NCBI GenBank assembly: GCA_003452965.1
Contig: DMMW01000010.1
Coordinates: 1 to 34,525 of the forward strand
DNA length: 34,525 bases
Direction of reading: 5' to 3'
DNA from: Elusimicrobiota bacterium
GTDB lineage: Bacteria > Elusimicrobiota > UBA8919
Shown: in pieces, positions 6,631 through 34,525 of the stretch
Numbering within the stretch: the stretch's first letter is position 1
Layout of the letters: each line of letters opens with the position of its first letter
Notes under the pieces: generated by a model
Told to the model about the DNA's origin: nothing
Databases searched by the model: none
The model's input: the letters and a program-made list of their open reading frames with translations, nothing else
Translations under genes and position numbers: made by a program

Positions 6631-7714
6631 ATTGGAACTTAAATATAAACCGGATTTTGATTATGCAAAAGAAATGTGGAATCATTATTGGGCAAAAGAA
6701 GTATTGAAACGTCCGCTTGTGGTTGCCAATGTAGTTAAACAAGAAGGAAAAACTGTTGATAAAGATAAGTATAAGTATTATAATGCATGTACGAAGAATT
6801 ATAGAGAACAACTGACGATAATTGATGAATGGTTGGATAATACGTTATTTCTTGCTGAATCAATTCCGTGTTTTTCTCCAAGTCACGGTCCTGACCAGTT
6901 TGCTGCAATGCTCGGTGCTGATTTAAAATTTTCAGAAAGTAGCAAAACTACGAATTGGGTAGAACCTATAGTAGAAAATTGGGAAGAATTTATCCCGAAG
7001 ATTAAATTAAATGAAAATAATTCCGTCTGGCAAAGTCTTCTGGAATATTCAAAGATTCTTAAAGAACATTCAAAGGGGAAATATCTCGTTGGGATTTGCG
7101 ATTTTTATTCAAATGCCGATATGTTAAGTGCGATTCGGTCTCCGGCTAAATTGTGTATGGATTTTTATGATTATCCCGAATCAATAGCAAAGGCAATGTT
7201 ATCAGTCAGAAAATTATATAAAACGGTATATAATTCTTTATATGAAGCAGGCGGAATGAACAACGAAACCGGTACTATAGGGTGGATTCCTTTTTGGTGT
7301 AAAGATAAATATGCAACGATTCAATGTGATTTTATATGTATGGTATCACCGAAAATTGCAAATGAATATATAATTCCGGCATTAGAGGAAGAGGCGAATT
7401 TTCTTGACCATTGCATCTATCATCTTGACGGTCCCGGAGCATTACCACATCTTGATAATATTCTTGCAATAAAAAAAATTGATGCAATTCAGTGGATACC
7501 CGGTGATGGGCAGCCGCCGCAGTATGAATGGATTGATGTTCTGAAAAAATGCCAGAAAGCTGGTAAGGGACTTCAGATTTTGGATGTCACAAGCATAGAT
7601 ATTATAAAAAAATTCAGCAAAGAACTCAGTCCGGAAGGACTGGTATACTGCATAGACGTAAAGACTGAAAGAGAAGTTGATGAAATAACGACATGGCTTG
7701 AAAAAAACACTTGA
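6617..7714 (+). CDS. Hypothetical protein, possibly a uroporphyrinogen-decarboxylase (URO-D)-like TIM-barrel family member
   Basis: 365-aa ORF. The overall pattern (SHGPDQFAAMLGA..., CIYHLDGPGALPHLDNILAIKKIDAIQWIPG) recalls URO-D/MtaA-like proteins. The family call is from memory only. Confidence 0.4.
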   Translation: MKRSKLELKYKPDFDYAKEMWNHYWAKEVLKRPLVVANVVKQEGKTVDKDKYKYYNACTKNYREQLTIIDEWLDNTLFLAESIPCFSPSHGPDQFAAMLGADLKFSESSKTTNWVEPIVENWEEFIPKIKLNENNSVWQSLLEYSKILKEHSKGKYLVGICDFYSNADMLSAIRSPAKLCMDFYDYPESIAKAMLSVRKLYKTVYNSLYEAGGMNNETGTIGWIPFWCKDKYATIQCDFICMVSPKIANEYIIPALEEEANFLDHCIYHLDGPGALPHLDNILAIKKIDAIQWIPGDGQPPQYEWIDVLKKCQKAGKGLQILDVTSIDIIKKFSKELSPEGLVYCIDVKTEREVDEITTWLEKNT

Positions 7715-7926
7715 AGCTCCATCCCGATAACAATCGGGATTATAACATTTACCATAAGATTTTAAGGAGCGGAATCCGGCCCGTCAAGGCTTCGGCCTTG
7801 GCTGGCTGCAGGATGAAGCTCCATCCCGATAACAATCGGGATTATAACATTTACCATAAGATTTTAAGGAGCGGAATCCGGCCCGTCAAGGCTTCGGCCT
7901 TGGCTGGCTGCAGGATGAAGCTCCAT
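7712..7926 (+). repeat. Perfect 102-bp tandem duplication (7712-7813, 7814-7915) plus an 11-nt third start; each unit carries two hairpins
   Basis: The two units are identical by direct reading. Hairpin A is atcccgat-aaca-atcgggat (7721-7740 and 7823-7842). Hairpin B is caaggc-ttcg-gccttg (7785-7800 and 7887-7902), a C(UUCG)G tetraloop on the + strand. The array begins at the stop codon of the upstream gene. Confidence 0.95.
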
Positions 7927-10536: not shown

Positions 10537-12009
10537 ATGATTAAATTAATAAAAAAAATGTCTTTTAAATTAAAATTGATTATAATTATTTCTTTTATAA
10601 ATATTTTGGTTATATCTATTATTTCATATATAAGCATGCTCCACATGGAAAGAAGTTTAAAAGAGAGAATGGAATTAAGAACCAAGGTGATTGTTGATGT
10701 AATAGTACATAGCATTGATGACGAGACAAAATTAAAACGAGAGGTAATAGAAGAATATTCTAACTTTATTATCAATGAACGGGAGATACAATATATAGCA
10801 TTTTTTGATAAAAGAAATAATTTAATAAGTATAGCCGGTGAACGTGGAAAAACTGAAATTAAATTTGTTACAGAAAATATATTTGATATGCAAGATAATA
10901 TATACGATGTTTACGGGGAGATAATAGGAAAAAATAAAATAAAAATAGGTTCTATAATAGTAGGATTCCCGATTACAAAGCTGAAGCAGGCAATTAATAA
11001 AGGAGTAGTAACAAGTATAATATTATGGTTAATAGCTATCGTCGTGATAATGATTTTTAATTATTCAAGTTTAACATATTTTTTACGACCTATCAGAGAT
11101 TTATTTCGTGCAGCTGAATGTGTTTCCAAAAGGGACTTTAATTGCAAGATACCTGTTTATAATGCTGATGAAATCGGAAAAATATCAGAACAATTTAATC
11201 TTATGATAGTTGAATTAGAATCTTTTTATAATTCACTTGAGGAAAAAGTTAAAATAGCAACTAATGGATTAGAAGCATCAAATGAAAAATTAAAAGAGAA
11301 AACAAAAGAGTTGGAAGAAATGGATAAAAGGAAAACAGAGTTTGTTTCCATTGTCGCCCATGATTTAAGGTCGCCTCTTACTTCAATGATGGGTTTTGCG
11401 GATACATTAAACAATGAAAATTTAAATTTAAGCGAACAAGACAAAAAAAGATATATAAATATAATACGCACTGAAACGCGGCGACTATCAAAGCTAATTT
11501 CAAATTTCCTTGATATATCTTTAATTGAAGAAAACAAAATTGTTATGGATGCTGAAAAAACAGATTTAGAAGAATTAATTAATGATGTGCTTAATTCTAT
11601 GAGCGAAAACATAATAAAAGGGATAAGAATATCGCTTGAAGTTGGAGAAGATATTCCTCAAATTTATATGGACAGAGATAGAATAATTCAAGTTTTACAG
11701 AATCTCATTATCAATGCATTAAAATATTCACCTGAGATGTCTGAGATTAAAATTATAGCCAAAAGGTTTCCCGATGAAGTAAGGATAAGTGTAATAGACC
11801 AAGGTCCTGGAATACCGGACAGGCAAAAAGAAAAAATATTTAATAAATTTAGCAAATTGAGTGAACAAAAAGCAAAAAAGGAGTCTGGAATAGGTTTAGG
11901 ATTGTTCATAGCAAAATCTATTGTTAATCTGCATGGTGGCAAAATATGGGTTGAAGATGCTGAAAATAAAGGCAGTAATTTTTCATTTACATTGCCAATA
12001 AAGGAATAA
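10537..12009 (+). CDS. Membrane sensor histidine kinase (2 TM, extracytoplasmic domain, HAMP, HisKA, HATPase_c); no cognate response regulator in the window
   Basis: H-box FVSIVAHDLRSPL, N-box NLIINALKYS, G1 DQGPGIP and G2 GIGLGLFIAKS. HAMP-like ADEIGKISEQFNLM follows the second TM. Confidence 0.85.
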   Translation: MIKLIKKMSFKLKLIIIISFINILVISIISYISMLHMERSLKERMELRTKVIVDVIVHSIDDETKLKREVIEEYSNFIINEREIQYIAFFDKRNNLISIAGERGKTEIKFVTENIFDMQDNIYDVYGEIIGKNKIKIGSIIVGFPITKLKQAINKGVVTSIILWLIAIVVIMIFNYSSLTYFLRPIRDLFRAAECVSKRDFNCKIPVYNADEIGKISEQFNLMIVELESFYNSLEEKVKIATNGLEASNEKLKEKTKELEEMDKRKTEFVSIVAHDLRSPLTSMMGFADTLNNENLNLSEQDKKRYINIIRTETRRLSKLISNFLDISLIEENKIVMDAEKTDLEELINDVLNSMSENIIKGIRISLEVGEDIPQIYMDRDRIIQVLQNLIINALKYSPEMSEIKIIAKRFPDEVRISVIDQGPGIPDRQKEKIFNKFSKLSEQKAKKESGIGLGLFIAKSIVNLHGGKIWVEDAENKGSNFSFTLPIKE

Positions 12010-22146: not shown

Positions 22147-22477
22147 CCTTAAAATAAAAAAACCTTAAAAAATAATATTATACAATTTAAAAAAACACTG
22201 TCGGGATAAACTCCATTGGCAGTCGCAATCTTGCCTGCCTAAGATTTCTTGTCCTTCGTAGCTTTATCGGTTGAAATTGAAAATTGACCCACCATAGAAG
22301 AAGTTAATCAAAGAATTCCTCCTTGTTTTTTCATAAAAATTGGATATAATCAGTTAAGTAAGTTAATATGATGTGTATGAGATATGTAGTATGTCCCCAG
22401 CATCCCAGAAATCGTAGGAAAAGCAGGATAATATAAATGGAGTGTCTTTGACATTACCATATTCTTTAGGAGGTCAT

Positions 22478-23338
22478 ATGATAGACGAAAAAGATGTTTA
22501 TGAGGCTAAGAAGAAAGTGCAGTCTGCAATGAAGGATGCGACTGTAAGGATGGCGGTGATTGTTGGGGCGATTCTGTTGGGCATTCTGTTCTTTAGACCA
22601 TGGATCCAGATTGGTCCTGGCGAAAGAGGTGTTGTCTTAAATTTTGGTGCTGTTCAGAAAAACGTGCTTGGAGAAGGATTGCATTTTAGGATACCTATAG
22701 TGCAGACGATTGCCATAATGGATGTAAAGGTGCAGAAGGCAGAGACAGGTGCTGCATCCGCCTCGTCCGATCTTCAGGATGTGACATCATCGGTTGCGCT
22801 TAACTATCATATAGTCCCGGATAAGGCAAATGTTGTCTATCAAACCATCGGGGTATACTTTAAGGAGCGTATTATAGACCCTGCAATACAAGAGGTAATG
22901 AAAGCTGTGTCAGCCAAGTATACAGCAGAAGAACTTATAACAAAGAGGGCAGCAGTAAGCGAGGCTATAAGAGAAACACTTGCTGAAAGACTTTTAGCAT
23001 ATAATATAGCAGTTGATGCATTTTCCATTATCTCATTCAGTTTCTCTAAGGTATTTACAGAAGCCATTGAGTCAAAACAGACAGCAGAACAGCTTGCACT
23101 AAAAGCAAAGAGAGACCTGGATAGGATAAAGATAGAGGCGGAGCAGACAATTACGGCAGCAAAAGCAGAGGCGGAGTCCCTGAGGCTGCAAAGAGCGAAT
23201 ATTTCTACGGACCTTATAGAATTGAGAAAAATAGAGGCAAACCTTAAGGCAATAGATAAGTGGAATGGAATCCTTCCGCAGGTTACAGGTAGCGGAGCAA
23301 TACCATTTATTGGAGTAGGGGATATACAGAAAAAATAA
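22478..23338 (+). CDS. SPFH/Band-7 (prohibitin-like) membrane protein
   Basis: An N-terminal TM followed by IGPGERGVVLNFG, a PHB core and a C-terminal coiled coil (AEQLALKAKRDL...). GGAGG lies before the ATG at 22478. Confidence 0.85.
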   Translation: MIDEKDVYEAKKKVQSAMKDATVRMAVIVGAILLGILFFRPWIQIGPGERGVVLNFGAVQKNVLGEGLHFRIPIVQTIAIMDVKVQKAETGAASASSDLQDVTSSVALNYHIVPDKANVVYQTIGVYFKERIIDPAIQEVMKAVSAKYTAEELITKRAAVSEAIRETLAERLLAYNIAVDAFSIISFSFSKVFTEAIESKQTAEQLALKAKRDLDRIKIEAEQTITAAKAEAESLRLQRANISTDLIELRKIEANLKAIDKWNGILPQVTGSGAIPFIGVGDIQKK

Positions 23339-23614: not shown

Positions 23615-23724
23615 CTATGCATCTCAACGACATGTCTAAATGTCCGGTTTGTAGAAACTTTATTTCTTTTTGTAATGAATGTTGTAGGTAAATATTTAAC
23701 ATGGAATCATGGGGGTATTTAGAA

Positions 23725-25428
23725 ATGATAGAAACATTTTCTAATAAAGAAATAAAAAAGGATAGTAAGATAGCCTATTTCTCAATGGAGATAGGCATTG
23801 ATTCAAGAATTCCAACATACAGTGGTGGACTCGGAGTTTTAGCCGGGGATACACTTAAATCCTGTGCAGACCTGAAAGTACCGGTGGTTGGGATAACGCT
23901 GTTATATAAAAAAGGATATTACTATCAGAAATTGGATGAACGGGGAAATCAAATAGAATTACCTGTACAATGGACACCGTCTGATTTTTTAGAACTGTTG
24001 CCAGAAAAAATAAATGTAAAAATAGAAAACAGAGATGTAATTGTTCAAGCATGGCAATACAACTTGGAATCGGTAGACGGGCGTAATACGACGGTCCCTA
24101 TACTCTTCCTTGATACGGATATTTCTGAAAATAGTAACTACGATAGGTCGCTTACGGATAAACTCTATGGCGGAGATGAGAAATATCGGCTTGCACAGGA
24201 GATTATTTTAGGAATTGGCGGTGTGCATATCCTCCGTAAACTTGGATATAATAGTATAAAAAAATACCATATGAATGAAGGGCATGCAAGTTTGTTGGTT
24301 TTGGAATTGCTCCGAGAACTCAAAAAACAAGAAGACTCTTCATTGGATTTTGATGCGGTGCGAGATATGTGTGTTTTCACAACGCATACGCCTGTTCCTG
24401 CAGGACATGACAAATTTTCTTACGACTTAGTAAAAAATGTTCTGGGTGAATTTCTTCCGATTGATGTGCTCAAAATGCTTGCCGGAGAAAAGAATTTCAA
24501 CATGACATTACTTGCGTTAAACTCATCCAAATATATAAACGGCGTAGCAAAAAAACATGGAGAAGTTTCCCGCGAAATGTTTCCCAATTATTCTATTGAC
24601 TCAATAACAAACGGAATTCATTCATACTCTTGGGCATCGGGAAGTTTCAGGAAATTATATGATAAATATATTCCCGGTTGGACAAAAGACCCTTTTACAT
24701 TAAGGTACACTATCAGTATTCCAAAAACTGAAATATGGAATGTACATCTGGAAGCAAAAAAAAACCTTATTGATTATGTCAATAAAGAAACGAATGCCGG
24801 AATGGATTATGAAACATTCACAATAGGGTTCGCAAGAAGGGCATCTACATACAAACGTGCAGACCTTTTATTTTTTGATAATCATCGGCTTGTTAATATA
24901 TCTAAAATCGGAAAAATACAAATCATATTTGCCGGAAAGGCACACCCGAAAGATATACCGGGAAAGGAGATAATTAAAAAAATTTTCAGTCATATACACA
25001 ATTTAAAAACCGATATAAAAATTGCTTACCTTGAAGATTACAATATAGAACTTGGAAAAATGATTACATCCGGGGTTGATTTATGGTTAAATACGCCGTT
25101 AAAGCCTAGAGAGGCATCAGGCACTTCCGGTATGAAAGCATCGCTTAACGGAGTGCCGAATTTTAGTGTTTTAGACGGTTGGTGGATAGAGGGCTGTATT
25201 GAAGGTATTACCGGCTGGTCAATAGGGACAAAGTTAGCCGAAGAAAACTCCGATAAGAAAGATGCCGAAGATTTATACGCAAAGTTAGAAAATATAATTA
25301 TTCCGATGTTCTACAAGTATAGAGAGCAGTGGCTGAATATTATGCAATACAGTATTGCATTTAATGCCTCTTTTTTTAACACGCACAGAATGGTTCACCA
25401 GTATGTGCTAAATGCGTATCTGGATTAA
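23725..25428 (+). CDS. Alpha-glucan phosphorylase family protein (GT35, short GlgP/maltodextrin phosphorylase type)
   Basis: IAYFSMEIG...YSGGLGVLAGD, HMNEGHA and the PLP-lysine motif EASGTSGMKASLNG. The start is ambiguous (23701 or 23725). Confidence 0.85.
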   Translation: MIETFSNKEIKKDSKIAYFSMEIGIDSRIPTYSGGLGVLAGDTLKSCADLKVPVVGITLLYKKGYYYQKLDERGNQIELPVQWTPSDFLELLPEKINVKIENRDVIVQAWQYNLESVDGRNTTVPILFLDTDISENSNYDRSLTDKLYGGDEKYRLAQEIILGIGGVHILRKLGYNSIKKYHMNEGHASLLVLELLRELKKQEDSSLDFDAVRDMCVFTTHTPVPAGHDKFSYDLVKNVLGEFLPIDVLKMLAGEKNFNMTLLALNSSKYINGVAKKHGEVSREMFPNYSIDSITNGIHSYSWASGSFRKLYDKYIPGWTKDPFTLRYTISIPKTEIWNVHLEAKKNLIDYVNKETNAGMDYETFTIGFARRASTYKRADLLFFDNHRLVNISKIGKIQIIFAGKAHPKDIPGKEIIKKIFSHIHNLKTDIKIAYLEDYNIELGKMITSGVDLWLNTPLKPREASGTSGMKASLNGVPNFSVLDGWWIEGCIEGITGWSIGTKLAEENSDKKDAEDLYAKLENIIIPMFYKYREQWLNIMQYSIAFNASFFNTHRMVHQYVLNAYLD

Positions 25429-25431
25429 ATT

Positions 25432-26847
25432 ATGCGTAAAACAAAAATTATCTGTACTATGGGTCCGGCTTCAGAAAAACCCGTAACGATTGAAAAAATG
25501 ATAAAATCGGGAATGGATATTGCGCGTCTGAATTTTTCACATGGCAACCATGAAGAACATAGAGAACGTATCAACATTATACAAAAAGTATCAAATAAAT
25601 TGAGTAAAAACATAGGGATTATGCAGGATTTACAGGGTCCAAAGATTCGTATTGGCAAATTTAAACCGGGAATACAAAATATAATCCTACAACCTGGTGA
25701 GAAATATATTTTAACTACCGAAAATTGCCCAGAGGGAGATAAAAATAAAGTAAATGTAGATTATAAAGAACTACACAGATATCTTACTAAAAACGATAGA
25801 ATTTTTCTTGATGACGGCAAAATAGAACTATTAGTAAAGAAGGTTATAAATAGAAATATTGAGTGTGAAGTAGTTGTCGGTGGCGAATTATCAGAACGCA
25901 AAGGACTCTCTTTACCGGATAAGCATCTACCACAACCTGTGATTACTCAACAAGATATAAATGATTTGTATTTTGGCATGAAAATCGGAGTAAATTATGT
26001 TGCAGTATCTTTCACAAGAAAAAAAGAAAATATACTGAAAATAAGAAAGCTGCTTAGAAACAATAATAAGATATCGCTAATTGCTAAAATTGAGGATGCT
26101 GAAGGATTAAGTAATATTAACAGTATAATTGATGTATCTGACGGTATAATGATTGCACGTGGTGACTTAGGTGTATGCTTACCAAGAGCAGAAGTACCTC
26201 TAATACAAAAAGAAATAATTAGAAAATGCCGTAAATCAGGTAAACCGGTAATAGTTGCAACACAGATGCTTGATTCAATGACAACAAATCTTCATCCTAC
26301 TCGTGCAGAAGTGAATGATGTTGCTAATGGTGTGTTAGATGGGGCAGATTGTTTAATGCTTTCTGGGGAAACTTCTATAGGCAAATATCCTATAGAAACA
26401 GTCAGGGAAATGGGCGAAATCATTAACACAATAGAAAAATCCGCTGATTATCTGAAAACCCTAACTTCAGAAAATTTTTATCCACAAGAACGCGGATTAA
26501 TTCAAGGATTAAGTATAGCAATTGATAAACTTTCACAAGTTGACAATGCAAAAGCAATTATCTGTTTAACCAAAACCGGTAATACAGCTAAAATAATTTC
26601 ACAATATCGCCCGCAATTACCGATAATTGCTGTTACGGTAGATAAAACGATTGCAATGAAATTACTTGTCTATTGGGGGATAAAAGTTTTAATCGGTAAA
26701 AAAGTAAAAGATGTAGAACGGAATTATAACACTTTTGTCAGGCAAGTAAAAAGAGAAGGACTGGTTAATGAAAGTGGTATAGTAATTATTACAAGTGGAA
26801 TAAAAGAAAAACCATTTCTAGCAAATATTTCTGTAGTTGAAGTATAA
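25432..26847 (+). CDS. pyk: Pyruvate kinase
   Basis: MRKTKIICTMGPA, ARLNFSHG, MIARGDLG, ATQMLDSM and MLSGETS. Confidence 0.9.
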   Translation: MRKTKIICTMGPASEKPVTIEKMIKSGMDIARLNFSHGNHEEHRERINIIQKVSNKLSKNIGIMQDLQGPKIRIGKFKPGIQNIILQPGEKYILTTENCPEGDKNKVNVDYKELHRYLTKNDRIFLDDGKIELLVKKVINRNIECEVVVGGELSERKGLSLPDKHLPQPVITQQDINDLYFGMKIGVNYVAVSFTRKKENILKIRKLLRNNNKISLIAKIEDAEGLSNINSIIDVSDGIMIARGDLGVCLPRAEVPLIQKEIIRKCRKSGKPVIVATQMLDSMTTNLHPTRAEVNDVANGVLDGADCLMLSGETSIGKYPIETVREMGEIINTIEKSADYLKTLTSENFYPQERGLIQGLSIAIDKLSQVDNAKAIICLTKTGNTAKIISQYRPQLPIIAVTVDKTIAMKLLVYWGIKVLIGKKVKDVERNYNTFVRQVKREGLVNESGIVIITSGIKEKPFLANISVVEV

Positions 26848-27238
26848 GGGGGCTGGGACTATGCTCTTGACTTTTTATTGTAGTATGTCCCCCAAGGTCC
26901 ATAGTAAACAACGAATGGTATTTTGGGGAATACAATACCTAAATAACGTCAAAAAAAATGAAAAATCAATGAAAACACAACTAATTGCTGAAGCAAACGT
27001 ATGGTGGAAATTTGGTAAAAACTTTTCTTACATATCAAAAGAATTACAAAGGAATTGACCCTACCCCATTAAATTTTACTAATACTAAATCCTATCTAAA
27101 AATTACTTGACAATTTATGAATATTATTATAAGACATATATGTAATATAAATGATAGTATACACGGTAAATGCGAGCAAATAATAGCATACTCATAAGTA
27201 TCCTACTCGTGAGTATTCTAACTAAAAGGGTGCGGTTT

Positions 27239-27574
27239 ATGGAGCATAAATTCATAAATAGAAAATCTGAAATTGATTCATTAGAAAAAAAGTGGGAAGA
27301 GAAAAAAAGCCACTTGATTATTGTTTACGGCAAAAGGCGTGTAGGTAAAACGGAAATCATAAAACAGTTTATTAAAAATAAACCCTCTGTATATTTCTTG
27401 GCTGACAAACGGACTATAAACGAACAACTCAAAGAATTAGGCAGGTTATTCGGCGCTCATTTCAAAGATGCCCTACTTGAAAAGAACGGATTTACCGACG
27501 ATATGCTGAAACTGGCGAAACAAGAACGTGTTTACTTAGTCAACAAGAACGAATTGATTGAGATGCAAGAGTAA
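27239..27574 (+). pseudogene. Internally deleted ATPase of the Arch_ATPase + DUF234 type (N-terminal ~95 aa joined to the last ~30 aa)
   Basis: FINRKSEIDSLEKKW..HLIIVYGKRRVGKTEIIKQFIKNKPSVYFLA (Walker A) runs directly into GFTDDMLKLAKQERVYLVNKNEL, the typical extreme C-terminus of such ~450-aa proteins. Confidence 0.6.
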
Positions 27575-27624
27575 TAAGACAGTATAGGTCGCGACAGAGC
27601 AACAGTTTATAAGTTAAAGATTGA

Positions 27625-27891
27625 TTCGTTGCATTAGTATTTAAAGAAATTGGACGAGCTGACGAGATGGGGTCGGGTGTCAGGAAACTCTATAAATATT
27701 GTAAAATCAACTCGGGATTAAATCCCCAGTTGATAGAAGAGGATATATTTAAAATTATTATTCCATTAGATGAGCAAGTTGGTGAGCAAGTCCTAAAGAT
27801 ACTTAAATACTGTAAAATCTCAAGAAAGAAGCAAGAAATATCCGATATGTTATATCCCGACGAAGGAACGGAAATCTTTCACTTTATATGA
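27625..27891 (+). pseudogene. C-terminal fragment of a COG2865-type (HATPase_c_4 + wHTH) protein, paralogous to the 27961 gene
   Basis: FKEIGRADEMGSGVRKLYKYCKINSGLNPQLIEEDIFKIIIPL compares with QQAGSGTLEMLKQCKAKGLPEPDF in the intact neighbour. The open frame starts only at 27625, just after a stop. Confidence 0.5.
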
Positions 27892-27923
27892 TAAAAGATG
27901 AAAAACCAAAAAGACCCCGTTCC

Positions 27924-27951
27924 TTGATTTTTCACTGTAAAAGAGTATAAT
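27924..27951 (+). promoter_or_regulatory. Putative promoter TTGATT-16-TATAAT ending 9 nt before the ATG (near-leaderless transcript)
   Basis: TTGATT at 27924-27929 and TATAAT at 27946-27951, with the ATG at 27961 and no SD between them. Confidence 0.4.
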
Positions 27952-27960
27952 CAAATCATT

Positions 27961-29436
27961 ATGAAAAAGTATAAAATATTCGTGAGTGGTGTGCAGAAAG
28001 AACTCAAAGCAGAACGCCGGGCAGTGAAAGATTCGATTCTCGGTGATGTCTTGCTCTCCGAGTATTTTGACGTTTTCTTGTTTGAAGATTCACCGGCTAA
28101 AAGCCATTCAGCAGAAAAGGCATATCTTGAAGAAGTCCGTAAAGGCAATATCTATATCAGCATTCTTGGCGATAAATACGGCAGCACGGGCAAGAATAAA
28201 ATTTCTCCTACCGAAGCAGAATTTCGGGAAGCAAAAACCAAGCATAAAGACATTTTAATTTATATAAAAGGTGAAAACTCCGTTGATAAAAACCGTGAAG
28301 CAGGCGTACAGAAACTTATTAAGGAGATTAAAGATTCCAAGGTGGGTTATTGTTATCGCAGATTTAATTCCATCAGCGAATTAACCAACCTTGTTTATGA
28401 AAGTTTGATTGTCTTTTTAAAAGAGAAAGGAGAAGTCGGCAGAGCCGTATTTGACCAGCGGATATGCGACAGTGCGACTTTCTCCGATATTGACGATGAA
28501 AAAGTTAAGTGGTTTTTAAAAACAGCACGAGCCAAACGGAATTTTCCACTTGCTCTTGATTCTTCAACACAAGATGTTTTTACTCATCTAAAACTTTTGA
28601 AAGACGGCAAATTGACCAACGCCGCAGTTTTATTATTCGGCAAAGAACCGAGAAAGTTTTTTGACCAGGCAAAAATCAAATGTATTCATCTGCCAAGTAC
28701 CGAAGTAGAGAAACCGTTCACATCATATCAAATTTACGAAGGGAATTTATTTGAGCAGGTGGACAAGGCAGTTAGTTTTGTATTTGATATACTCAAATTC
28801 CCTGTTATTCAGCAGGAACATACTGTCCAGGTATCTCGGCCCCGTGAAATTCCAGTATTCGTGGTTCAGGAAGCCATCGTCAACGCAGTTGCTCACCGCG
28901 ACTATAACACGACGTCCTCTGTTCAGGTAATGGTATTTCTTGACCGAGTGGAAATATGGAATTCTGGGACTTTACCAGCCCACTTAAAAATAGAAGACCT
29001 CAAAAAACCACACGCATCTCACCCGACAAATACTTTATTAGCCACAGTAATGTTTTTTGCCGATTACATTCAACAAGCAGGTTCGGGAACATTGGAGATG
29101 CTCAAACAGTGTAAGGCAAAGGGACTTCCCGAGCCGGACTTCGTATCAGTGCGGAATCTTGAATTCAAAACAATATTAGCCAGAGATATTTTTACGGAAG
29201 AGGTCTTAAATAAACTGGGATTGAATGAACGCCAGTTAAAAGCAGTAAAATATGTAAAAGAAAAAGGCAGAATAACGAATAAAGAATATCAGTTAAATTT
29301 TGGTGTTAAGAAAAGACAAGCAACAGATGATTTAAAAGATTTAGAAAATAAAGAGGTCTTAATTAAGATTGGATCTACTGGAAGGGGAACATATTACAAG
29401 GTTAATGGGGCGATAATGGGGCGAAAGGGGCAATAA
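27961..29436 (+). CDS. Fusion protein: N-terminal DUF4062-like domain + COG2865-type body (HATPase_c_4-like) + C-terminal wHTH
   Basis: The N-terminus KIFVSGVQKELKAERRAVKDSI...GNIYISILGDKYGS matches my recollection of the DUF4062 pattern. The middle and C-terminal parts (LTNAAVLLFGKEP, VQEAIVNAVAHRDY, VEIWNSGTLP, AGSGTLEMLKQCKAKGLPEPDF) are typical of RecG-like/COG2865 putative regulators. Confidence 0.75.
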   Translation: MKKYKIFVSGVQKELKAERRAVKDSILGDVLLSEYFDVFLFEDSPAKSHSAEKAYLEEVRKGNIYISILGDKYGSTGKNKISPTEAEFREAKTKHKDILIYIKGENSVDKNREAGVQKLIKEIKDSKVGYCYRRFNSISELTNLVYESLIVFLKEKGEVGRAVFDQRICDSATFSDIDDEKVKWFLKTARAKRNFPLALDSSTQDVFTHLKLLKDGKLTNAAVLLFGKEPRKFFDQAKIKCIHLPSTEVEKPFTSYQIYEGNLFEQVDKAVSFVFDILKFPVIQQEHTVQVSRPREIPVFVVQEAIVNAVAHRDYNTTSSVQVMVFLDRVEIWNSGTLPAHLKIEDLKKPHASHPTNTLLATVMFFADYIQQAGSGTLEMLKQCKAKGLPEPDFVSVRNLEFKTILARDIFTEEVLNKLGLNERQLKAVKYVKEKGRITNKEYQLNFGVKKRQATDDLKDLENKEVLIKIGSTGRGTYYKVNGAIMGRKGQ

Positions 29437-29452
29437 AGGGGCGATAATGGGG
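29407..29452 (+). repeat. Five phased GGGG runs (~11-nt period; GGGGCGATAAT-type units) overlapping the gene's stop; canonical G-quadruplex motif
   Basis: GGGG at 29407, 29418, 29427, 29438 and 29449, with loops of 5-7 nt. The unit ggggcgataat occurs exactly twice. Confidence 0.9.
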
Positions 29453-29697
29453 CAGAGCATTTAAAAAGACAGTATGTTTTTCCGATATAAAAACAGGAAA
29501 GCGCATTGGTCTCGATAAAGGCGGCCACTGGATTATCCTTCGTAGCAATAATAAAGTGGGAAAAGTTGTAGAGAAATAAAAAGAAAAATGTAAAGCGTCC
29601 ACATTTTCCTAATACACAATATGACACACAGATAAAGAACCTAAAATTAGGATTATCATTTCAAAACATAGGTCCCAAAATGACATTTATACAAGAG

Positions 29698-29875
29698 TGA
29701 CCCCACCCCCGAAAACTGTACCAGTTGAAATTAGAGTTTAGAAATGGTAAACTAAACTCATGGGGGTATGGTTATGAAACAGGGCAGGTACAAGGAAGAG
29801 CAGATTATCGGGATATTGAAGGAAGCAGAAGCCGGCATAAAGATAGATAAATTATGCCGTAAATAAGGATTAAAT
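29698..29875 (+). mobile_element. Truncated IS3-family remnant: left end (TGACCCCACCCCC...) plus the first 30 codons of orfA
   Basis: MKQGRYKEEQIIGILKEAEAGIKIDKLCRK* (29774-29866) matches the conserved IS3 OrfA HTH N-terminus (..EEQIIGILKEAEAG....LCRK). A TGA-initiated terminal sequence lies about 75 nt upstream. No remainder of the transposase is present. Confidence 0.6.
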
Positions 29876-29881
29876 GAGATT

Positions 29882-32800
29882 ATGAGCAATCAATTTATAA
29901 CTAATCAGGAAAAACTACTGTCGGAAGTAATAAATAATATTCTCCCATCCACACAAAAGTTAAATATCTTGGTTGGATATTTTTATTTTTCCGGATTCCA
30001 GGAAATTTATAAAAATATAGCAGATAAAGAAGTTAAAATCCTCATTGGTTTAGATATTGAAAAAGATATTTTAAACAAAGTCAAAGAATTTGAACTAATT
30101 CAATCTATAAATCTTTCCCGAAGTCAAGTAAGAGATAATTTCAATAAATCGTTTATCCAATTATTTAACGATTCAGATTATTTTGATATTGAAGAAAAAC
30201 AAGAGGCATTCCGAATATTTCTTGAAAAAATTATAAACAAAACACTTGAAATTAGAAAAACCGTCCAACAAAACCATGCAAAATTATATGTTTTTGAAAA
30301 CAAGCCGGAACATAATCAGAACGGTGAATTCTTAGGAACAATAATTACCGGTTCAAGCAACTTAACCCGTTCAGGATTAAAAGGACAGCGTGAAATAAAT
30401 GTTATATTTCGTGACAATGGCAATTACGAGGAAGCACTCAAAATATTCAACGAACTTTGGAAGGATGAAAACTCGGTAGAAATAGTCGGTAAAACTACAA
30501 CGGACAGTTTTCTTATCGAAATAATAGAAAAAATCTGGATTGATAAACTTTACGATCCATATTTATTATATATTCGTGTCTTGGAAGAATATTTTTCATT
30601 TACTAAGAAAGAAGGTATCATTCTTCCTTCCGAAATTACAAAAAATAAATTCATGAATCTTAAATATCAGAATGACGCTATTTCGCAATCAATAGAAATT
30701 CTTAACCGGCACAACGGCGTTATCATTGCGGATGTTGTTGGATTGGGAAAAAGTATTATTGCTTCTGCAGTAGCCCATAACATGGGATTACGAACAATAA
30801 TTATCTCACCACCGCATCTAATAGGGCAATGGGATGATTATCATATTGATTTTGGATTTAACGCTAAAATATTCAGCAGCGGTAAAATACAGGAAGCATT
30901 AGAATATGATTTTGCATATAATGAGCCAAAATTAATTATTATAGATGAATCGCATAAATATCGCAACGAACTAAACATTGACTACGGATATTTACATCAA
31001 CTATGCCAGGGAAACAAAGTAATTTTATTAACCGCTACGCCATTTAACAACCAACCGCAGGACATATTTTCAATGATAAGATTATTTCAAATACCTGCTA
31101 GGTCCACAATACAAACAGTAGATAATTTATCATACAGATTTAAAGAACTTATCAAGGAATATAAAGAAATAAAAAAATCACAAATACAAAAAAAGTCGGA
31201 TATGAAAGATGAAATTAAAATATTGGCACAAAAAATCCGTGATATACTTGCTCCATTGGTTATTCGTCGGTCAAGATTGGACTTGGAAAAAATTAATGAA
31301 TACCGAGAAGACCTTAAAAAACAAGGGATATCATTTCCTGAAGTTAAAGATCCTACAATTTTAGACTATCCGCTTGGAAAACTTAGTATACTTTACGAAA
31401 AAACTCTTGAAAAAATTGTATCCACGGAAGACGAATCACAGGGCTTCATGGGAACAAGATATAAACCGACAAATTATCTTAAAGAAGAACACAAAAAACA
31501 AGTTGCTGATGAATTAGGTGTAAAAGAAGATTTACTTGTACAGGTACAAATAAACCTGTCAAAATTTATGCGTCGCCTATTAGTCAGGCGTTTTGAAAGC
31601 TCGGTAAAAGCATTTCACGATTCCTTGAACTCACTAATAAAATCATCCGAATACATGCGTGATTGGTATAATAAATTTGAGAGTGTTCCAATATACAAAA
31701 AAGGTGATTTGCCGGACATAGAAATCCTTGAACAATCCACCAGTGAAGATTTAGATGAAGAACTCCAGCAGATTACATTTGACGAGCAACTAAAAAAATA
31801 TTATGACAAAGGACTTAAAATAATAAAAAAAGAATGGCTAAAAGACACTTTCATTAAAGACATTGAAAAAGACATAAAACTACTAAAAGAAATACGTGCA
31901 GAATGGTTTAAAGACGGCATCAAACACGACCCGAAATTAGAATGTTTTGAAAAAGAAATAAAGCAACAACTAAAAAAAGAACCCAACAGAAAAATAGTTG
32001 TATTTACCGAATTTTCAGATACAGCAAACTATCTATACGAAAAACTCAAAAACAAATTGAAAATATTTAAATATACCTCCGCGGACTCAAGTGAAACCAA
32101 CAAAAAAATAATCAAAGAAAACTTTGATGCCGGTAATCCTATACAAAAAGACGACTACGACATTCTTATTGCTACCGATGCAATTTCAGAAGGCTTTAAC
32201 CTTCACAAAGCAGGTATTATATTCAACTATGACATCCCATACAACCCGACAAGAGTAATACAACGGGTAGGACGTATAAACCGCATAAACAAAAAAGTAT
32301 TTAATGAACTTTACATCTATAATTTCTTTCCAACGGCTACCGGTGAAGCAGAAACACGGATAAAAAAGATATCTACATTAAAAATTTCATTATTTAATGC
32401 TTTACTTGGTACCGACATAAAAGTATTAACCTCGGATGAAGAATTGGAATCCTATTACAAAAATGAATTTATAAAATCAATGGCAAATCAAGAAGAACTA
32501 TCATGGGATGTAAAATATCGCAATGAACTTGGAATATTGAAAAATAAACATCCAGATATATTACAAAAGGCAATGGCAGTTCCCCATCGTGCCCGCATTA
32601 GAAGAACAGAAAAGAAAGATACAGCTGGAGTCATTGTATTTGCGCGAAAAGGGAAAGAATACACGTTCAAACTTGGCATTTCAAAGGAAGATTATACAAC
32701 ATTAGGTCCTGAAACTGCACTAAAACTATTTGAATCAGAAATAACCGAAAAATCGGAAAAAATAAGTAAAAACTTTGAACCGATATACCAGCATGTAAAA

Positions 32801-33121
32801 AACAACCTATTCAACAAAAAAACCCAGGTATCTTTTGATAAAGGAAAAACCGAATCAATAAACAAATTAGAAGTATTACAAGAAAAGATTCCAGATAAAA
32901 AGGACTATTTCAACGATTTAAAATATATAATAAAAGAACTGGATGCATTACCTGAAAGATATGCTAAACAAATCCGTCAAATATCAGAAAAATCCCTTAA
33001 AAAAGATGTTGAAGAACTGCAAAAAGATGTATCGCAGAAATACTTAATAGAAATCATAGAAAAAGCACGAAGAATAGAAGATGAAGCAGAAAGCTTAATA
33101 CTCACAGAAGAACTGATATAA
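29882..33121 (+). CDS. PLD-family (single HKD) nuclease domain fused to an SNF2/SF2 helicase
   Basis: LNILVGYFYFSG and HAKLYVFEN...GSSNLTRSGL (HxK...GSxN). Helicase motifs are DVVGLGKS (I), IIIDESHKYRN (II), LLTATPFNN (III), TDAISEGFNL and QRVGRINR (VI). The ~250-aa C-terminal tail is uncharacterised. Confidence 0.85.
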   Translation: MSNQFITNQEKLLSEVINNILPSTQKLNILVGYFYFSGFQEIYKNIADKEVKILIGLDIEKDILNKVKEFELIQSINLSRSQVRDNFNKSFIQLFNDSDYFDIEEKQEAFRIFLEKIINKTLEIRKTVQQNHAKLYVFENKPEHNQNGEFLGTIITGSSNLTRSGLKGQREINVIFRDNGNYEEALKIFNELWKDENSVEIVGKTTTDSFLIEIIEKIWIDKLYDPYLLYIRVLEEYFSFTKKEGIILPSEITKNKFMNLKYQNDAISQSIEILNRHNGVIIADVVGLGKSIIASAVAHNMGLRTIIISPPHLIGQWDDYHIDFGFNAKIFSSGKIQEALEYDFAYNEPKLIIIDESHKYRNELNIDYGYLHQLCQGNKVILLTATPFNNQPQDIFSMIRLFQIPARSTIQTVDNLSYRFKELIKEYKEIKKSQIQKKSDMKDEIKILAQKIRDILAPLVIRRSRLDLEKINEYREDLKKQGISFPEVKDPTILDYPLGKLSILYEKTLEKIVSTEDESQGFMGTRYKPTNYLKEEHKKQVADELGVKEDLLVQVQINLSKFMRRLLVRRFESSVKAFHDSLNSLIKSSEYMRDWYNKFESVPIYKKGDLPDIEILEQSTSEDLDEELQQITFDEQLKKYYDKGLKIIKKEWLKDTFIKDIEKDIKLLKEIRAEWFKDGIKHDPKLECFEKEIKQQLKKEPNRKIVVFTEFSDTANYLYEKLKNKLKIFKYTSADSSETNKKIIKENFDAGNPIQKDDYDILIATDAISEGFNLHKAGIIFNYDIPYNPTRVIQRVGRINRINKKVFNELYIYNFFPTATGEAETRIKKISTLKISLFNALLGTDIKVLTSDEELESYYKNEFIKSMANQEELSWDVKYRNELGILKNKHPDILQKAMAVPHRARIRRTEKKDTAGVIVFARKGKEYTFKLGISKEDYTTLGPETALKLFESEITEKSEKISKNFEPIYQHVKNNLFNKKTQVSFDKGKTESINKLEVLQEKIPDKKDYFNDLKYIIKELDALPERYAKQIRQISEKSLKKDVEELQKDVSQKYLIEIIEKARRIEDEAESLILTEELI

Positions 33122-33134
33122 TGAAGTATAATTT

Positions 33135-34169
33135 ATGAGTGAAAATCGTATCGTTTTAGACAAAACTTATTTGAATTTCTTAAACGAAATCAAACACAAA
33201 ATTGCTTCTGCAAGAATACAAGCAAGTCGGCATTTAAATAAGGAATTGATAGAACTTTACTGGGATATCGGAAAAACAATTATTGAGAAACAAAAGCAAT
33301 ATGGATGGGGACAAAGTATCGTTGAAAAATTAGCCAATGATTTGCAAAATGGATTTCCTAATTTGCGGGGATACTCAAGTCGTAATCTATGGGATATGAG
33401 AAGATTTTATGATACATATAAAGATTCATCAATTCTGCGACAGCTTGTCGCAGAAATACCATGGGGACACAACCTAATGATTATAAACAAAATATCCAAC
33501 ATGAAAGAACGAGAATATTATATTAAATCATCGCGTGATATGGGTTGGTCCAGGAACGTACTTCTGAATCAAATTAAAGCCGGAGCATATCAATTAAGTT
33601 TAAGAAAAAAACAACACAACTTTGAAAAAGCTTTACCTGTACATCTTTCAGAACAAGCGGATGAATCACTTAAAAGTGTTTATAGCCTGGATTTTCTCGG
33701 AATAACAAGACCAGTATTAGAAAGAGAGCTTGAAAAACGGCTTATTGAAAAAATTAAACATTTTCTGCTTGAACTTGGTTCGGGGTTTTCATTCATCGGC
33801 AATCAGTATCGGCTTGAATTAGACGGCACTGAATATTTTGTTGATTTGTTATTTTTTAACCGTAAAATTAAATGTCTCGTTGCCGTTGAACTTAAAACAG
33901 GTAAATTTCAGCCCGAATATGCCGGAAAAATGGATTTTTATCTACATCTACTAAACGAACAGACCCGCCTGAAAGATGAAAACCCGCCGATAGGAATTAT
34001 TCTTTGTGCCGATAAAAGTAATATAACCGTTGAATACGCTTTAAGAAGCGTTAAAAATCCTATGGGTGTATCACAATACAATTTAACAACAAAACTTCCC
34101 GCTGAACTTAAAAAAGTTTTACCGTCGGAAAAGGAAATGAAGAATCAACTTTTAGAAGAAATTAAGTGA
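33135..34169 (+). CDS. YhcG-family PD-(D/E)XK nuclease (DUF1016)
   Basis: The N-terminal domain LIELYWDIGKTIIEKQKQYGWGQSIVEKLANDL...RGYSSRNLWDMRRFY is classic DUF1016. The C-terminal nuclease core is YFVDLLFFNRKIKCLVAVELKTGKF. The start lies 13 nt after the helicase stop. Confidence 0.85.
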   Translation: MSENRIVLDKTYLNFLNEIKHKIASARIQASRHLNKELIELYWDIGKTIIEKQKQYGWGQSIVEKLANDLQNGFPNLRGYSSRNLWDMRRFYDTYKDSSILRQLVAEIPWGHNLMIINKISNMKEREYYIKSSRDMGWSRNVLLNQIKAGAYQLSLRKKQHNFEKALPVHLSEQADESLKSVYSLDFLGITRPVLERELEKRLIEKIKHFLLELGSGFSFIGNQYRLELDGTEYFVDLLFFNRKIKCLVAVELKTGKFQPEYAGKMDFYLHLLNEQTRLKDENPPIGIILCADKSNITVEYALRSVKNPMGVSQYNLTTKLPAELKKVLPSEKEMKNQLLEEIK

Positions 34170-34364
34170 CAAAATACCGGAAATGATTGGTAATGCTCAC
34201 TATATAGATGTCTGTCCCTATTAAATAACATACCATCAACTGATACAGTCGCAAGAGGACAATATAGTGAAGTAAAAAAAACGACAAATTGTCCGCCATT
34301 CGATGAATGGTGGAACAAAAGTGATTGGCTGTGTTGGTTGTAGGGATTTGCGATGTCTTGTAGT

Positions 34365-34456
34365 GGCAGGGTTTCCCTGCCTCCGCCAGTTGGCAGATGT
34401 AGCCGCAGAGCGAAGCTCTGCCTATATTGTCATTCCTGAATGTCTCTATCAGGAAT
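34365..34456. repeat. Cluster of three GC-rich stem-loops in a locally GC-rich intergenic segment (REP-like)
   Basis: ggcaggg-ttt-ccctgcc (34365-34381), gcagagc-gaa-gctctgc (34405-34421) and attcctga-N9-tcaggaat (34432-34456). Confidence 0.5.
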
Positions 34457-34525
34457 CCAAAAATGGGTACAACAAATGTCGTATTGAAAGCCTATTCGCC
34501 GAAACTCTCGTAGTGTAGGCGGGAC

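Follow-up and report, generated by a model that had tools for sequence, protein, structure and literature searches.

A probable defence island filling the slot between pyk and tRNA-Leu(UAA) in an uncultured groundwater Elusimicrobia genome

The concept of defence islands, variable hot spots beside tRNA genes, is said to go back to Makarova et al. in 2011 and Doron et al. in 2018. Such a region was sought downstream of pyk in a 34,525-nt stretch of DNA (the window; contig DMMW01000010.1 of GCA_003452965.1, whose proteins NCBI names Elusimicrobia bacterium RIFOXYC2_FULL_34_12), where an earlier note had described an accessory island with gene decay and mobile-element scars. All the items listed there were recovered at or near their places, and the region after pyk is probably the left part of a defence island that fills a variable slot between pyk and tRNA-Leu(UAA), is built from independent cassettes and is decayed at its left end. 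The island spans ∼17.9 kb from the pyk stop codon to the tRNA gene, carries all of its genes on the + strand and shows its left 7.7 kb in the window. The rest was read from a ∼56-kb composite of the window and a rightward contig extension; island-internal coordinates above 34525 are extrapolated from overlapping public contigs. Like other defence islands, this one clusters unrelated defence modules with toxin-antitoxin genes, insertion sequence (IS) debris and pseudogenes, is missing in relatives and strain-variable, and adjoins a tRNA gene with partial tRNA repeats. Unlike the usual hosts of defence islands, its host is an uncultured groundwater Elusimicrobia metagenome-assembled genome (MAG). 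The feature is real but ordinary in kind; it adds a new example to a well-known type and overturns no current ideas.

Several of its parts resemble described systems. Class 1 DISARM comprises the SNF2 helicase DrmD, the methylase DrmMI, DrmA, DrmB (DUF1998) and the PLD protein DrmC. In Type-2 BREX-related (BR) systems, a Swi2/Snf2 helicase with an N-terminal HKD endonuclease is paired with an N6-adenine methyltransferase, and a restriction-modification (RM)-like mechanism has been proposed (Nucleic Acids Res 2026, gkag035; PMC12839542); these loci embed auxiliary PD-(D/E)XK and Schlafen-type genes (PMC12839542). DUF4062 (NIR) has been described as a TIR-like NADase effector in anti-phage systems, where it is joined to variable partner regions (three 2026 bioRxiv preprints), and such defence proteins have been named Evangelion, Swarozyc, Vulcan and Vesta (bioRxiv 2026). 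The island supplies candidate natural variants of these recently described defence parts, and its compact HKD-SNF2 and methylase pair, its DUF4062-COG2865 fusion and its SIR2-less Dsr1-like pair deserve follow-up. As a whole it exemplifies a defence hot spot in uncultured groundwater Elusimicrobia, with a fixed main version, an alternative in a sister strain and a cassette shared between genomes.

Independent defence-type genes are clustered after pyk. PADLOC models match an ATPase fragment, the DUF4062 fusion, the HKD-SNF2 helicase, YhcG, a IIG-like methylase, the Dsr1-like protein, a helix-turn-helix (HTH) protein and SoFic. The arrangement had been called typical of defence islands with rapid gain and loss, a description borne out by PADLOC matches in most of the intact genes, by relatives without the island genes and by a sister strain with other cargo. 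Gene order was compared with at least four genomes among the matches listed in pyk scans of genomes and metagenomes, with pyk 75-84% identical. The conserved block and its counterparts are as follows.

22442-23338: Band7 gene, in the conserved block upstream of pyk, followed by a gene for a small Zn-ribbon protein
23701-25428: glycogen-phosphorylase-like gene (glgP), in the conserved block
25432-26847, + strand: pyk (Pfam PK and PK_C), last gene of the conserved core block
Relative L011, pyk 83% identical: Band7, Zn-ribbon and glgP upstream; a P-type ATPase after pyk, then queF-murC-murB-ddl-ftsQ
Relative L095, pyk 84% identical: Band7 upstream; an alpha-amylase-like gene after pyk, 4 nt past the stop codon
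Relative L096, pyk 78% identical: Band7, Zn-ribbon and glgP upstream; a TolC-like gene after pyk
Relative L012, pyk 75% identical: Band7 and part of the Zn-ribbon gene upstream; a small Zn-ribbon protein and transporters after pyk

The upstream order is kept in all four relatives and breaks exactly at the pyk stop codon; homology ends there, and this stop codon is the left edge of the island. No tblastn match to an island protein was found in any of the four, so the flank is kept and the content is absent or different. The synteny comparison that the earlier note had proposed finds the order and the truncated genes only in contigs of the same population (99.7-100% DNA identity), with the four relatives differing straight after pyk; the earlier reading thus withstands the refuting condition set for it. 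Ten contigs (L001-L010) are 99.9-100% identical to the window over the overlap, the YhcG protein was found encoded on 18 public contigs, and the rightward continuation of the region is carried by L003, L091/L092 and L175-L182.

The P-type ATPase gene after pyk in L011 (11474-14161) has its best non-self match, at 66% identity, on Omnitrophica-like contigs. That it has no close relative suggests that the slot after pyk is variable, or holds acquired DNA, in this genome too. An attempt to reach the island's right flank via this gene was rejected, as the window organism has no orthologue and the gene is probably accessory in L011.

A sister strain carries other cargo at the right end of the slot. 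Contig L180, which shares its sample of origin with L091, is 98% identical to the composite, but the match begins only ∼85 nt before tRNA-Leu; beside the tRNA it holds three unrelated genes (a 279-aa partial one and two large ORFs of 1217 aa and 370 aa at L180 858-5686). Contig L184 shows no difference from the window as far as 29362, where it passes into a gene labelled by eye as FtsX/MacB-like. The spacer repeats differ between contigs as well, with a 103-nt tandem duplication, an extra copy of spacer elements after Fic and a 59-nt hairpin insertion in L002.

Movement of a single cassette was observed in the left part of the island, where the following features lie.

27920-27960, + strand: upstream end of the cassette; DNA homology to L183 begins at 27920
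27961-29436, + strand: intact fusion of DUF4062 with a COG2865-type region (HATPase_c_4 and winged HTH (wHTH), by Pfam), 491 codons
29403-29454, + strand: tandem array of the 11-nt unit TAATGGGGCGA, 4.8 copies, straddling the stop codon of the fusion
29455-29697: spacer sequence of 243 nt

L183 belongs to another Elusimicrobiota MAG (GCA_043802785.1), in which the DUF4062 copy sits among Fic, Rep3_N, AbiEi/AbiEii and HsdM genes. The two proteins are 90% identical in amino acids and 92% in nucleotides, and the 92% DNA identity extends from 41 nt upstream of the start codon to codon 444, thereby including the promoter-like site found by promoter scan at 27924-27951 (TTGATT, 16 nt, TATAAT). Judged from these sequences, the DUF4062 cassette is horizontally mobile between genomes. 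The fusion, described earlier as intact, is open from 27961 to 29436, and its dN/dS of 0.058 against the L183 homologue places it under purifying selection. Its DUF4062 domain (PF13271, residues 5-91) scores 65.3 bits against a cut-off of 24.7, above the Pfam threshold, and PADLOC matches it to Argonaute-associated regions. It contains the stretch SPTEAEF (E85/E87), which may hold the conserved catalytic glutamate of such NADases.

Like the described DUF4062/NIR NADase proteins, the fusion joins an N-terminal DUF4062 to a variable C-terminal region in one protein, stands in a defence cluster and is a mobile gene; unlike them, it has a COG2865-type partner (HATPase_c_4 and wHTH). No mention of HATPase, AlbA, Schlafen or COG2865 was found in part of the 2026 DUF4062 preprint literature. 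The fusion is a candidate single-gene defence protein, which could act as an NAD-depleting abortive-infection protein with DUF4062 as the effector and the COG2865-type region as the sensor.

The tandem array at the end of the fusion, reported earlier as a G4 repeat, forms a G4 motif at 29407-29441, the only one in 56 kb (shuffled mean 0.025). In L183 (∼11460-11520) there is also a 5-copy array of 11 nt, across the stop codon or right behind it, with a GGCTCATAATT-like unit in place of TAATGGGGCGA, so that the period is kept and the sequence is not. The idea of a conserved G-quadruplex was rejected, because the L183 array of the same period has no G-runs. The 243-nt spacer that follows agrees with the ∼240 nt of non-coding DNA described previously.

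Decay is seen on both sides of this cassette. To its left lie a spacer and two dead genes, and to its right the remnant of an IS3-family element.

26848-27238: spacer of 391 nt with no recognisable gene
27056-27067, + strand: second copy of an IS3-end-like 12-mer, TGACCCTACCCC, within the 391-nt spacer
27239-27574, + strand: dead ATPase_2/DUF234-type gene (PADLOC PDC-S27-like), 111 aa
27625-27891, + strand: COG2865-type gene fragment, with the second half of HATPase_c_4 and the start of the winged helix; a 74-codon ORF lies within it at 27667-27891
29698-29724, + strand: IS3-family left terminal inverted repeat, TGACCCCACCCCCGAAAACTGTACCAG, 70 nt upstream of the orfA start
29768-29866, + strand: IS3 orfA stub of 32 codons, ending after '...LCRK', 15 nt before the HKD-SNF2 gene

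The first spacer had been given as about 390 nt of non-coding sequence, and its sole ORF (73 codons, TTG start) indeed has no Pfam match; relatives have 4-60 nt at this position. The 111-aa ATPase covers positions 1-68 of 225 in Pfam ATPase_2 and positions 1-78 of 474 in PADLOC PDC-S27. Its full-length relatives measure ∼460 aa, and in BLASTP against the 466-aa protein P0246 its residues 4-85 align to positions 2-83 and its residues 78-102 to positions 435-459. Since both ends align to a full-length homologue, the gene has undergone an in-frame internal deletion of ∼350 codons, as the earlier note had read it, with the frame kept.

The COG2865 fragment matches Pfam HATPase_c_4 at positions 44-83 of 89 (E = 0.0047, under the curated cut-off), carries the near-invariant motif GRADE(L/M)GSG common to relatives labelled RecG-like or HTH regulator, and weakly matches the intact gene next to it (residues 373-433). 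Missing from it are the 5' two-thirds and the last ∼35-40 codons of the gene, which makes it an internal, 3'-proximal fragment; the remnant is where it had been placed, and only its description as a 3' end needs amending. Neither dead gene differs between contigs of the population. In annotation, the short ORFs downstream of pyk should count as wrecked genes and not as small proteins.

The orfA stub covers positions 1-32 of 75 in Pfam HTH_Tnp_1 (E = 2.3e-5, 24.9 bits against a cut-off of 24.1), and the order of a TG-starting terminal inverted repeat followed by orfA with HTH_Tnp_1 identifies IS3. A left end with 30 codons of orfA had been described; the inverted repeat and the stub are present, and the stub counts 32 codons. 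No complete orfA/orfB and no matching right inverted repeat for IS3 were found, which leaves a remnant only, and several assemblies break at 29637-29788. The IS3 end sequence word is TGACCCCACCCCCGAAAACTG. The sequence TGACCCYACCCC occurs twice in the window, both times on the + strand, and in none of 100 shuffles, the pattern having been picked after both copies were seen. The 12-mer at 27056 may be a solo remnant of an IS terminal repeat.

At the other end, the boundary of the island lies outside the window, as had been anticipated, at a tRNA gene with att-like scars ∼10.2 kb past the window end.

∼44807-44894 (extrapolated): tRNA-Leu(UAA) gene, right boundary of the island

No tRNA was found inside the window. 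After tRNA-Leu follow core genes for LPG synthase, UvrD, GatC, GatA, a PMT/TPR protein and NifU. Before it, a Gp49/HTH_3 gene pair (HigBA-like toxin-antitoxin) comes after the Dsr1-like pair and is itself followed by Fic (PADLOC SoFic, E = 1e-51). A 338-nt direct repeat, 98.5% identical, flanks Fic on both sides; within it is a consensus promoter, TTGACA-17 nt-TAAAAT. The 5' end of the tRNA recurs as an exact copy of 32 nt, placed 125 nt upstream of tRNA-Leu, and a 25-nt stretch at the inner end of the left 338-nt repeat copy matches the anticodon-arm region of the tRNA in 22/25 nt. At the same junction, a 20-nt segment that occurs identically upstream of the tRNA passes into tRNA-like sequence, and the two sources overlap in GCAAGGG. 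By their sequence, the right-end repeats look like products of recombination at the tRNA gene. Possible signs of mobility are the tRNA-Leu gene, the tRNA-fragment repeats, the 338-nt direct repeat and the IS3 stub, while an integrase gene is absent. Beyond the boundary, every right-flank contig from L175 to L182 (for example L176 11647-13928) has an IS200-type Y1 transposase gene that separates gatC from gatA and overlaps the two.

The tRNA-derived scars could also have been left by a single integrative element in decay (what remains of a genomic island or prophage) that integrated one time at tRNA-Leu through site-specific recombination and then lost both the integrase and the att site at its far end. 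Such an element would account for the partial tRNA copies and hybrid junctions at the tRNA gene where the island ends, for the shared orientation of all the genes and for a part of the island that deviates in composition. We nevertheless consider it unlikely, because there is no integrase and no left-end repeat, the composition is heterogeneous along the island, the DUF4062 cassette moves alone between genomes, the 338-nt repeat brackets Fic alone and the sister strain differs only in part of what was visible.

A second alternative is an old and stable arrangement, in which distant species would simply have diverged in gene order overall and the small ORFs would be genuine short genes. No contig of the dominant population departs from the order, and the relatives are only 75-84% identical in pyk, with downstream genes that differ among themselves too. 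However, the same relatives keep the upstream synteny and break exactly at the pyk stop codon, the strain with the 98%-identical flank has other cargo, a copy of the DUF4062 cassette with 92% DNA identity stands in an unrelated context, the ATPase lacks ∼350 internal codons compared with all full-length relatives, and IS3 orfA is cut at codon 32. This explanation is largely refuted and very improbable.

An integron-like cassette array without its integrase, with structured recombination sites (hairpin clusters and a repeated GGGGTCACACCTAATTATT word) between co-oriented cassettes, is likewise very improbable: the genes are co-oriented, the spacers are rich in hairpins, the same 19-nt word stands after three modules, and a toxin-antitoxin pair and Fic, both typical integron cassette cargo, are present, but the integron integrase is absent, the genes greatly exceed the usual size of cassettes, the repeats are either long and direct or small nested palindromes instead of attC-like imperfect palindromes at every boundary, and a hairpin-bearing repeat unit also occurs in the core part at 7712-7926.

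Several observations weigh against the main reading. Between pyk and the tRNA neither an integrase gene nor one for another recombinase was found, and no att-like repeat was found on the pyk side, where only short matches at chance level occur; in these respects, and in that the dominant population keeps one fixed version across many samples, the locus is unlike other defence islands. All NCBIfam matches of island proteins fall far under the curated cut-offs. Pyk next to tRNA-Leu, that is a clean empty site, was not found among the matches listed. Since neither tRNA-Leu nor LPG synthase comes after pyk in the four relatives, some of the contrast with them could stem from the normal breakdown of synteny over such a distance. 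No defence domain could be recognised in the alternative cargo of L180 (PADLOC, NCBIfam and the recorded Pfam results give no match), and the L184 variant is one contig at ∼2x coverage, which could therefore be chimeric. Composition belongs here as well. The GC content is 31.5% in the island and 34.3% in the core, and in 2-kb windows the part of the island within the window stays inside the core range of tetranucleotide distance and is not compositionally distinct. Off the window, at 35-42 kb, GC falls to 25-28% and the tetranucleotide distance rises up to ∼5 standard deviations above the core mean. The change in sequence character after pyk that had been noted earlier therefore holds for gene content; in base composition it is weak inside the window and strong only in this off-window part.

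Gene content, decay, absence from the relatives, other cargo in the sister strain, passage of one cassette between genomes and the tRNA-derived repeats at the right end are read from the sequences themselves. For the defence island, we infer both an order of events and a recombination mechanism, as well as every biochemical function proposed here. The slot between pyk and tRNA-Leu would have been filled stepwise by self-contained, co-oriented defence cassettes. It would later have been eroded by deletions and by insertion of an IS3 element, which itself was then truncated.

The helicase module begins 15 nt after the orfA stub and extends beyond the window.

29882-33121, + strand: HKD(PLD)-Swi2/Snf2 helicase gene, 1079 codons (Pfam PLDc_2, SNF2-rel_dom and Helicase_C)
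33135-34169, + strand: YhcG/DUF1016 PD-(D/E)XK nuclease gene (Pfam DUF1016_N and YhcG_C; PADLOC PDC-S02, E = 3.7e-137)
34566-37934 (extrapolated), + strand: Eco57I/MmeI-type methyltransferase gene, 1122 aa (PADLOC REase_MTase_IIG, E = 3e-135; motifs DPACGSG and NPPY)

The HKD-SNF2 protein matches the PADLOC models DrmD and 'HKD+Snf2' and has the motifs HAK...GSSN, GLGKS and DESH. Its homologues were found in Parabacteroides distasonis (47% identity over the full length) and in Thermus oshimai and Allomeiothermus silvanus (32%). In all three distant genomes the homologue adjoins a homologue of the island methyltransferase (27-32% identity), on two Deinococcota plasmids in the case of Thermus and Allomeiothermus; in P. 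distasonis only 13 nt separate the pair, which is preceded by a COG2865-type gene. YhcG is absent between helicase and methylase in all three. Because the pairing is kept in three distant genomes without YhcG in between, YhcG here interrupts a conserved pair. A PLD-SNF2/YhcG pair had been proposed; both genes are present, and the arrangement is better read as an HKD-SNF2 and methyltransferase pair with YhcG between. For annotation, the partner gene of the helicase lies just beyond the window end.

The P. distasonis locus (L187 7439-15664, NZ_OY725763) consists of a COG2865-type gene (SLFN_AlbA_2 and HATPase_c_4), HKD-SNF2 and an Eco57I-type methylase, in the order of the island. Downstream of it lie genes for a TIR protein and an SF1 helicase with DUF2726.

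Like Type-2 BR systems, the island combines an HKD-Swi2/Snf2 helicase with an N6-adenine methyltransferase. Unlike them, it has no detected DUF499 and no detected standalone DUF3780; no Pfam match to the DUF499 AAA+ ATPase or to DUF3780 was obtained in the scanned island proteins or in the scanned neighbours of the P. distasonis homologue. With Class 1 DISARM it shares an SNF2 helicase, a PLD domain and an Eco57I-type adenine methylase, with partial PADLOC/NCBIfam matches to DrmD and DrmMI (NCBIfam DrmD against HKD-SNF2, 131 bits with a cut-off of 610). It differs from DISARM in that the PLD domain is fused to the helicase and DrmA and DrmB are absent: of the drmA/drmB/drmC core, DrmB has no match, the only DrmA match is partial and falls in the helicase C-terminal region of HKD-SNF2, and no separate drmA was found. 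The BREX set of PglZ, BrxC and PglX was not recovered either, as the methylase reaches 93-94 bits against PglX cut-offs of 400-500 and PglZ and BrxC have no matches. Judged by gene content, the HKD-SNF2/methylase pair is not a member of the BR, DISARM or BREX families, and its working would be of RM type: the methylase would mark host DNA and the HKD-SNF2 translocase-nuclease would cut unmarked DNA. It is tentatively proposed, as a possibility that we would not favour, that HKD-SNF2 and the methyltransferase, perhaps with the upstream COG2865-type gene, form a compact RM-like system distinct from DISARM, BREX and the DUF499-centred BR, with YhcG as a nuclease inserted between the partners.

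A further pair of genes lies off the window.

L003 6987-10453 (extrapolated 38001-41467): genes for a 221-aa protein with a borderline match to pP_pnuc_1 (predicted nuclease) and for a 932-aa Dsr1-like protein, 2 nt apart

The 932-aa protein aligns to positions 313-1201 of 1227 in PADLOC Dsr1 (E = 1e-77), and resembles Dsr1 (defence-associated sirtuin 1) in this sensor region. As the alignment starts at position 313 and SIR2 has no Pfam match, the SIR2 effector is missing; the N-terminal SIR2 fused to a sensor, which characterises Dsr1, was not found in the protein, and NCBIfam Dsr1 gives 42 bits against a cut-off of 1400. Unlike Dsr1, the protein lacks SIR2 and is preceded by the separate 221-aa protein. 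The predicted pair may be a split Dsr1-like system with a different effector. An assignment of the pair as DUF3780/DUF499, with similar-sized P. distasonis genes as counterparts, was rejected: Pfam and tblastn gave no match, and the 902-aa protein of P. distasonis is an SF1 helicase.

The spacer between YhcG and the methyltransferase contains a cluster of small structured elements.

34286-34525 and ∼10 nt beyond: GC-rich cluster of at least 6 short hairpins, ending ∼30 nt before the methyltransferase ATG at 34566

The cluster had been described as running off the window; it is present from ∼34286 and reaches only ∼10 nt further than the window. Its folding is better than that of shuffled sequence, with z-scores of -3.8 and -5.4 on the two strands, and one of its hairpins recurs inverted in another island spacer. 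No Rfam family matched in the window or for the cluster, and in the extension only tRNA matched. In L002 (11305-11363, corresponding to window 34438/34439), one hairpin has received a 59-nt insertion of further small hairpins in its loop. Growth of the cluster seems to proceed by small palindromic elements inserting into one another.

Small repeats were also observed outside the island. A GC-rich unit that bears hairpins is repeated at 7712-7926, in the window's core part, as a perfect tandem duplication of 102 nt (2.1 copies), which overlaps the end of one ORF and a short ORF. At 2094-2243, between two minus-strand genes, the heptamer CAGGATA occurs ∼21 times, and ACAGGATACAG words similar to it form an inverted repeat just downstream of tRNA-Leu (L092 3569-3642).

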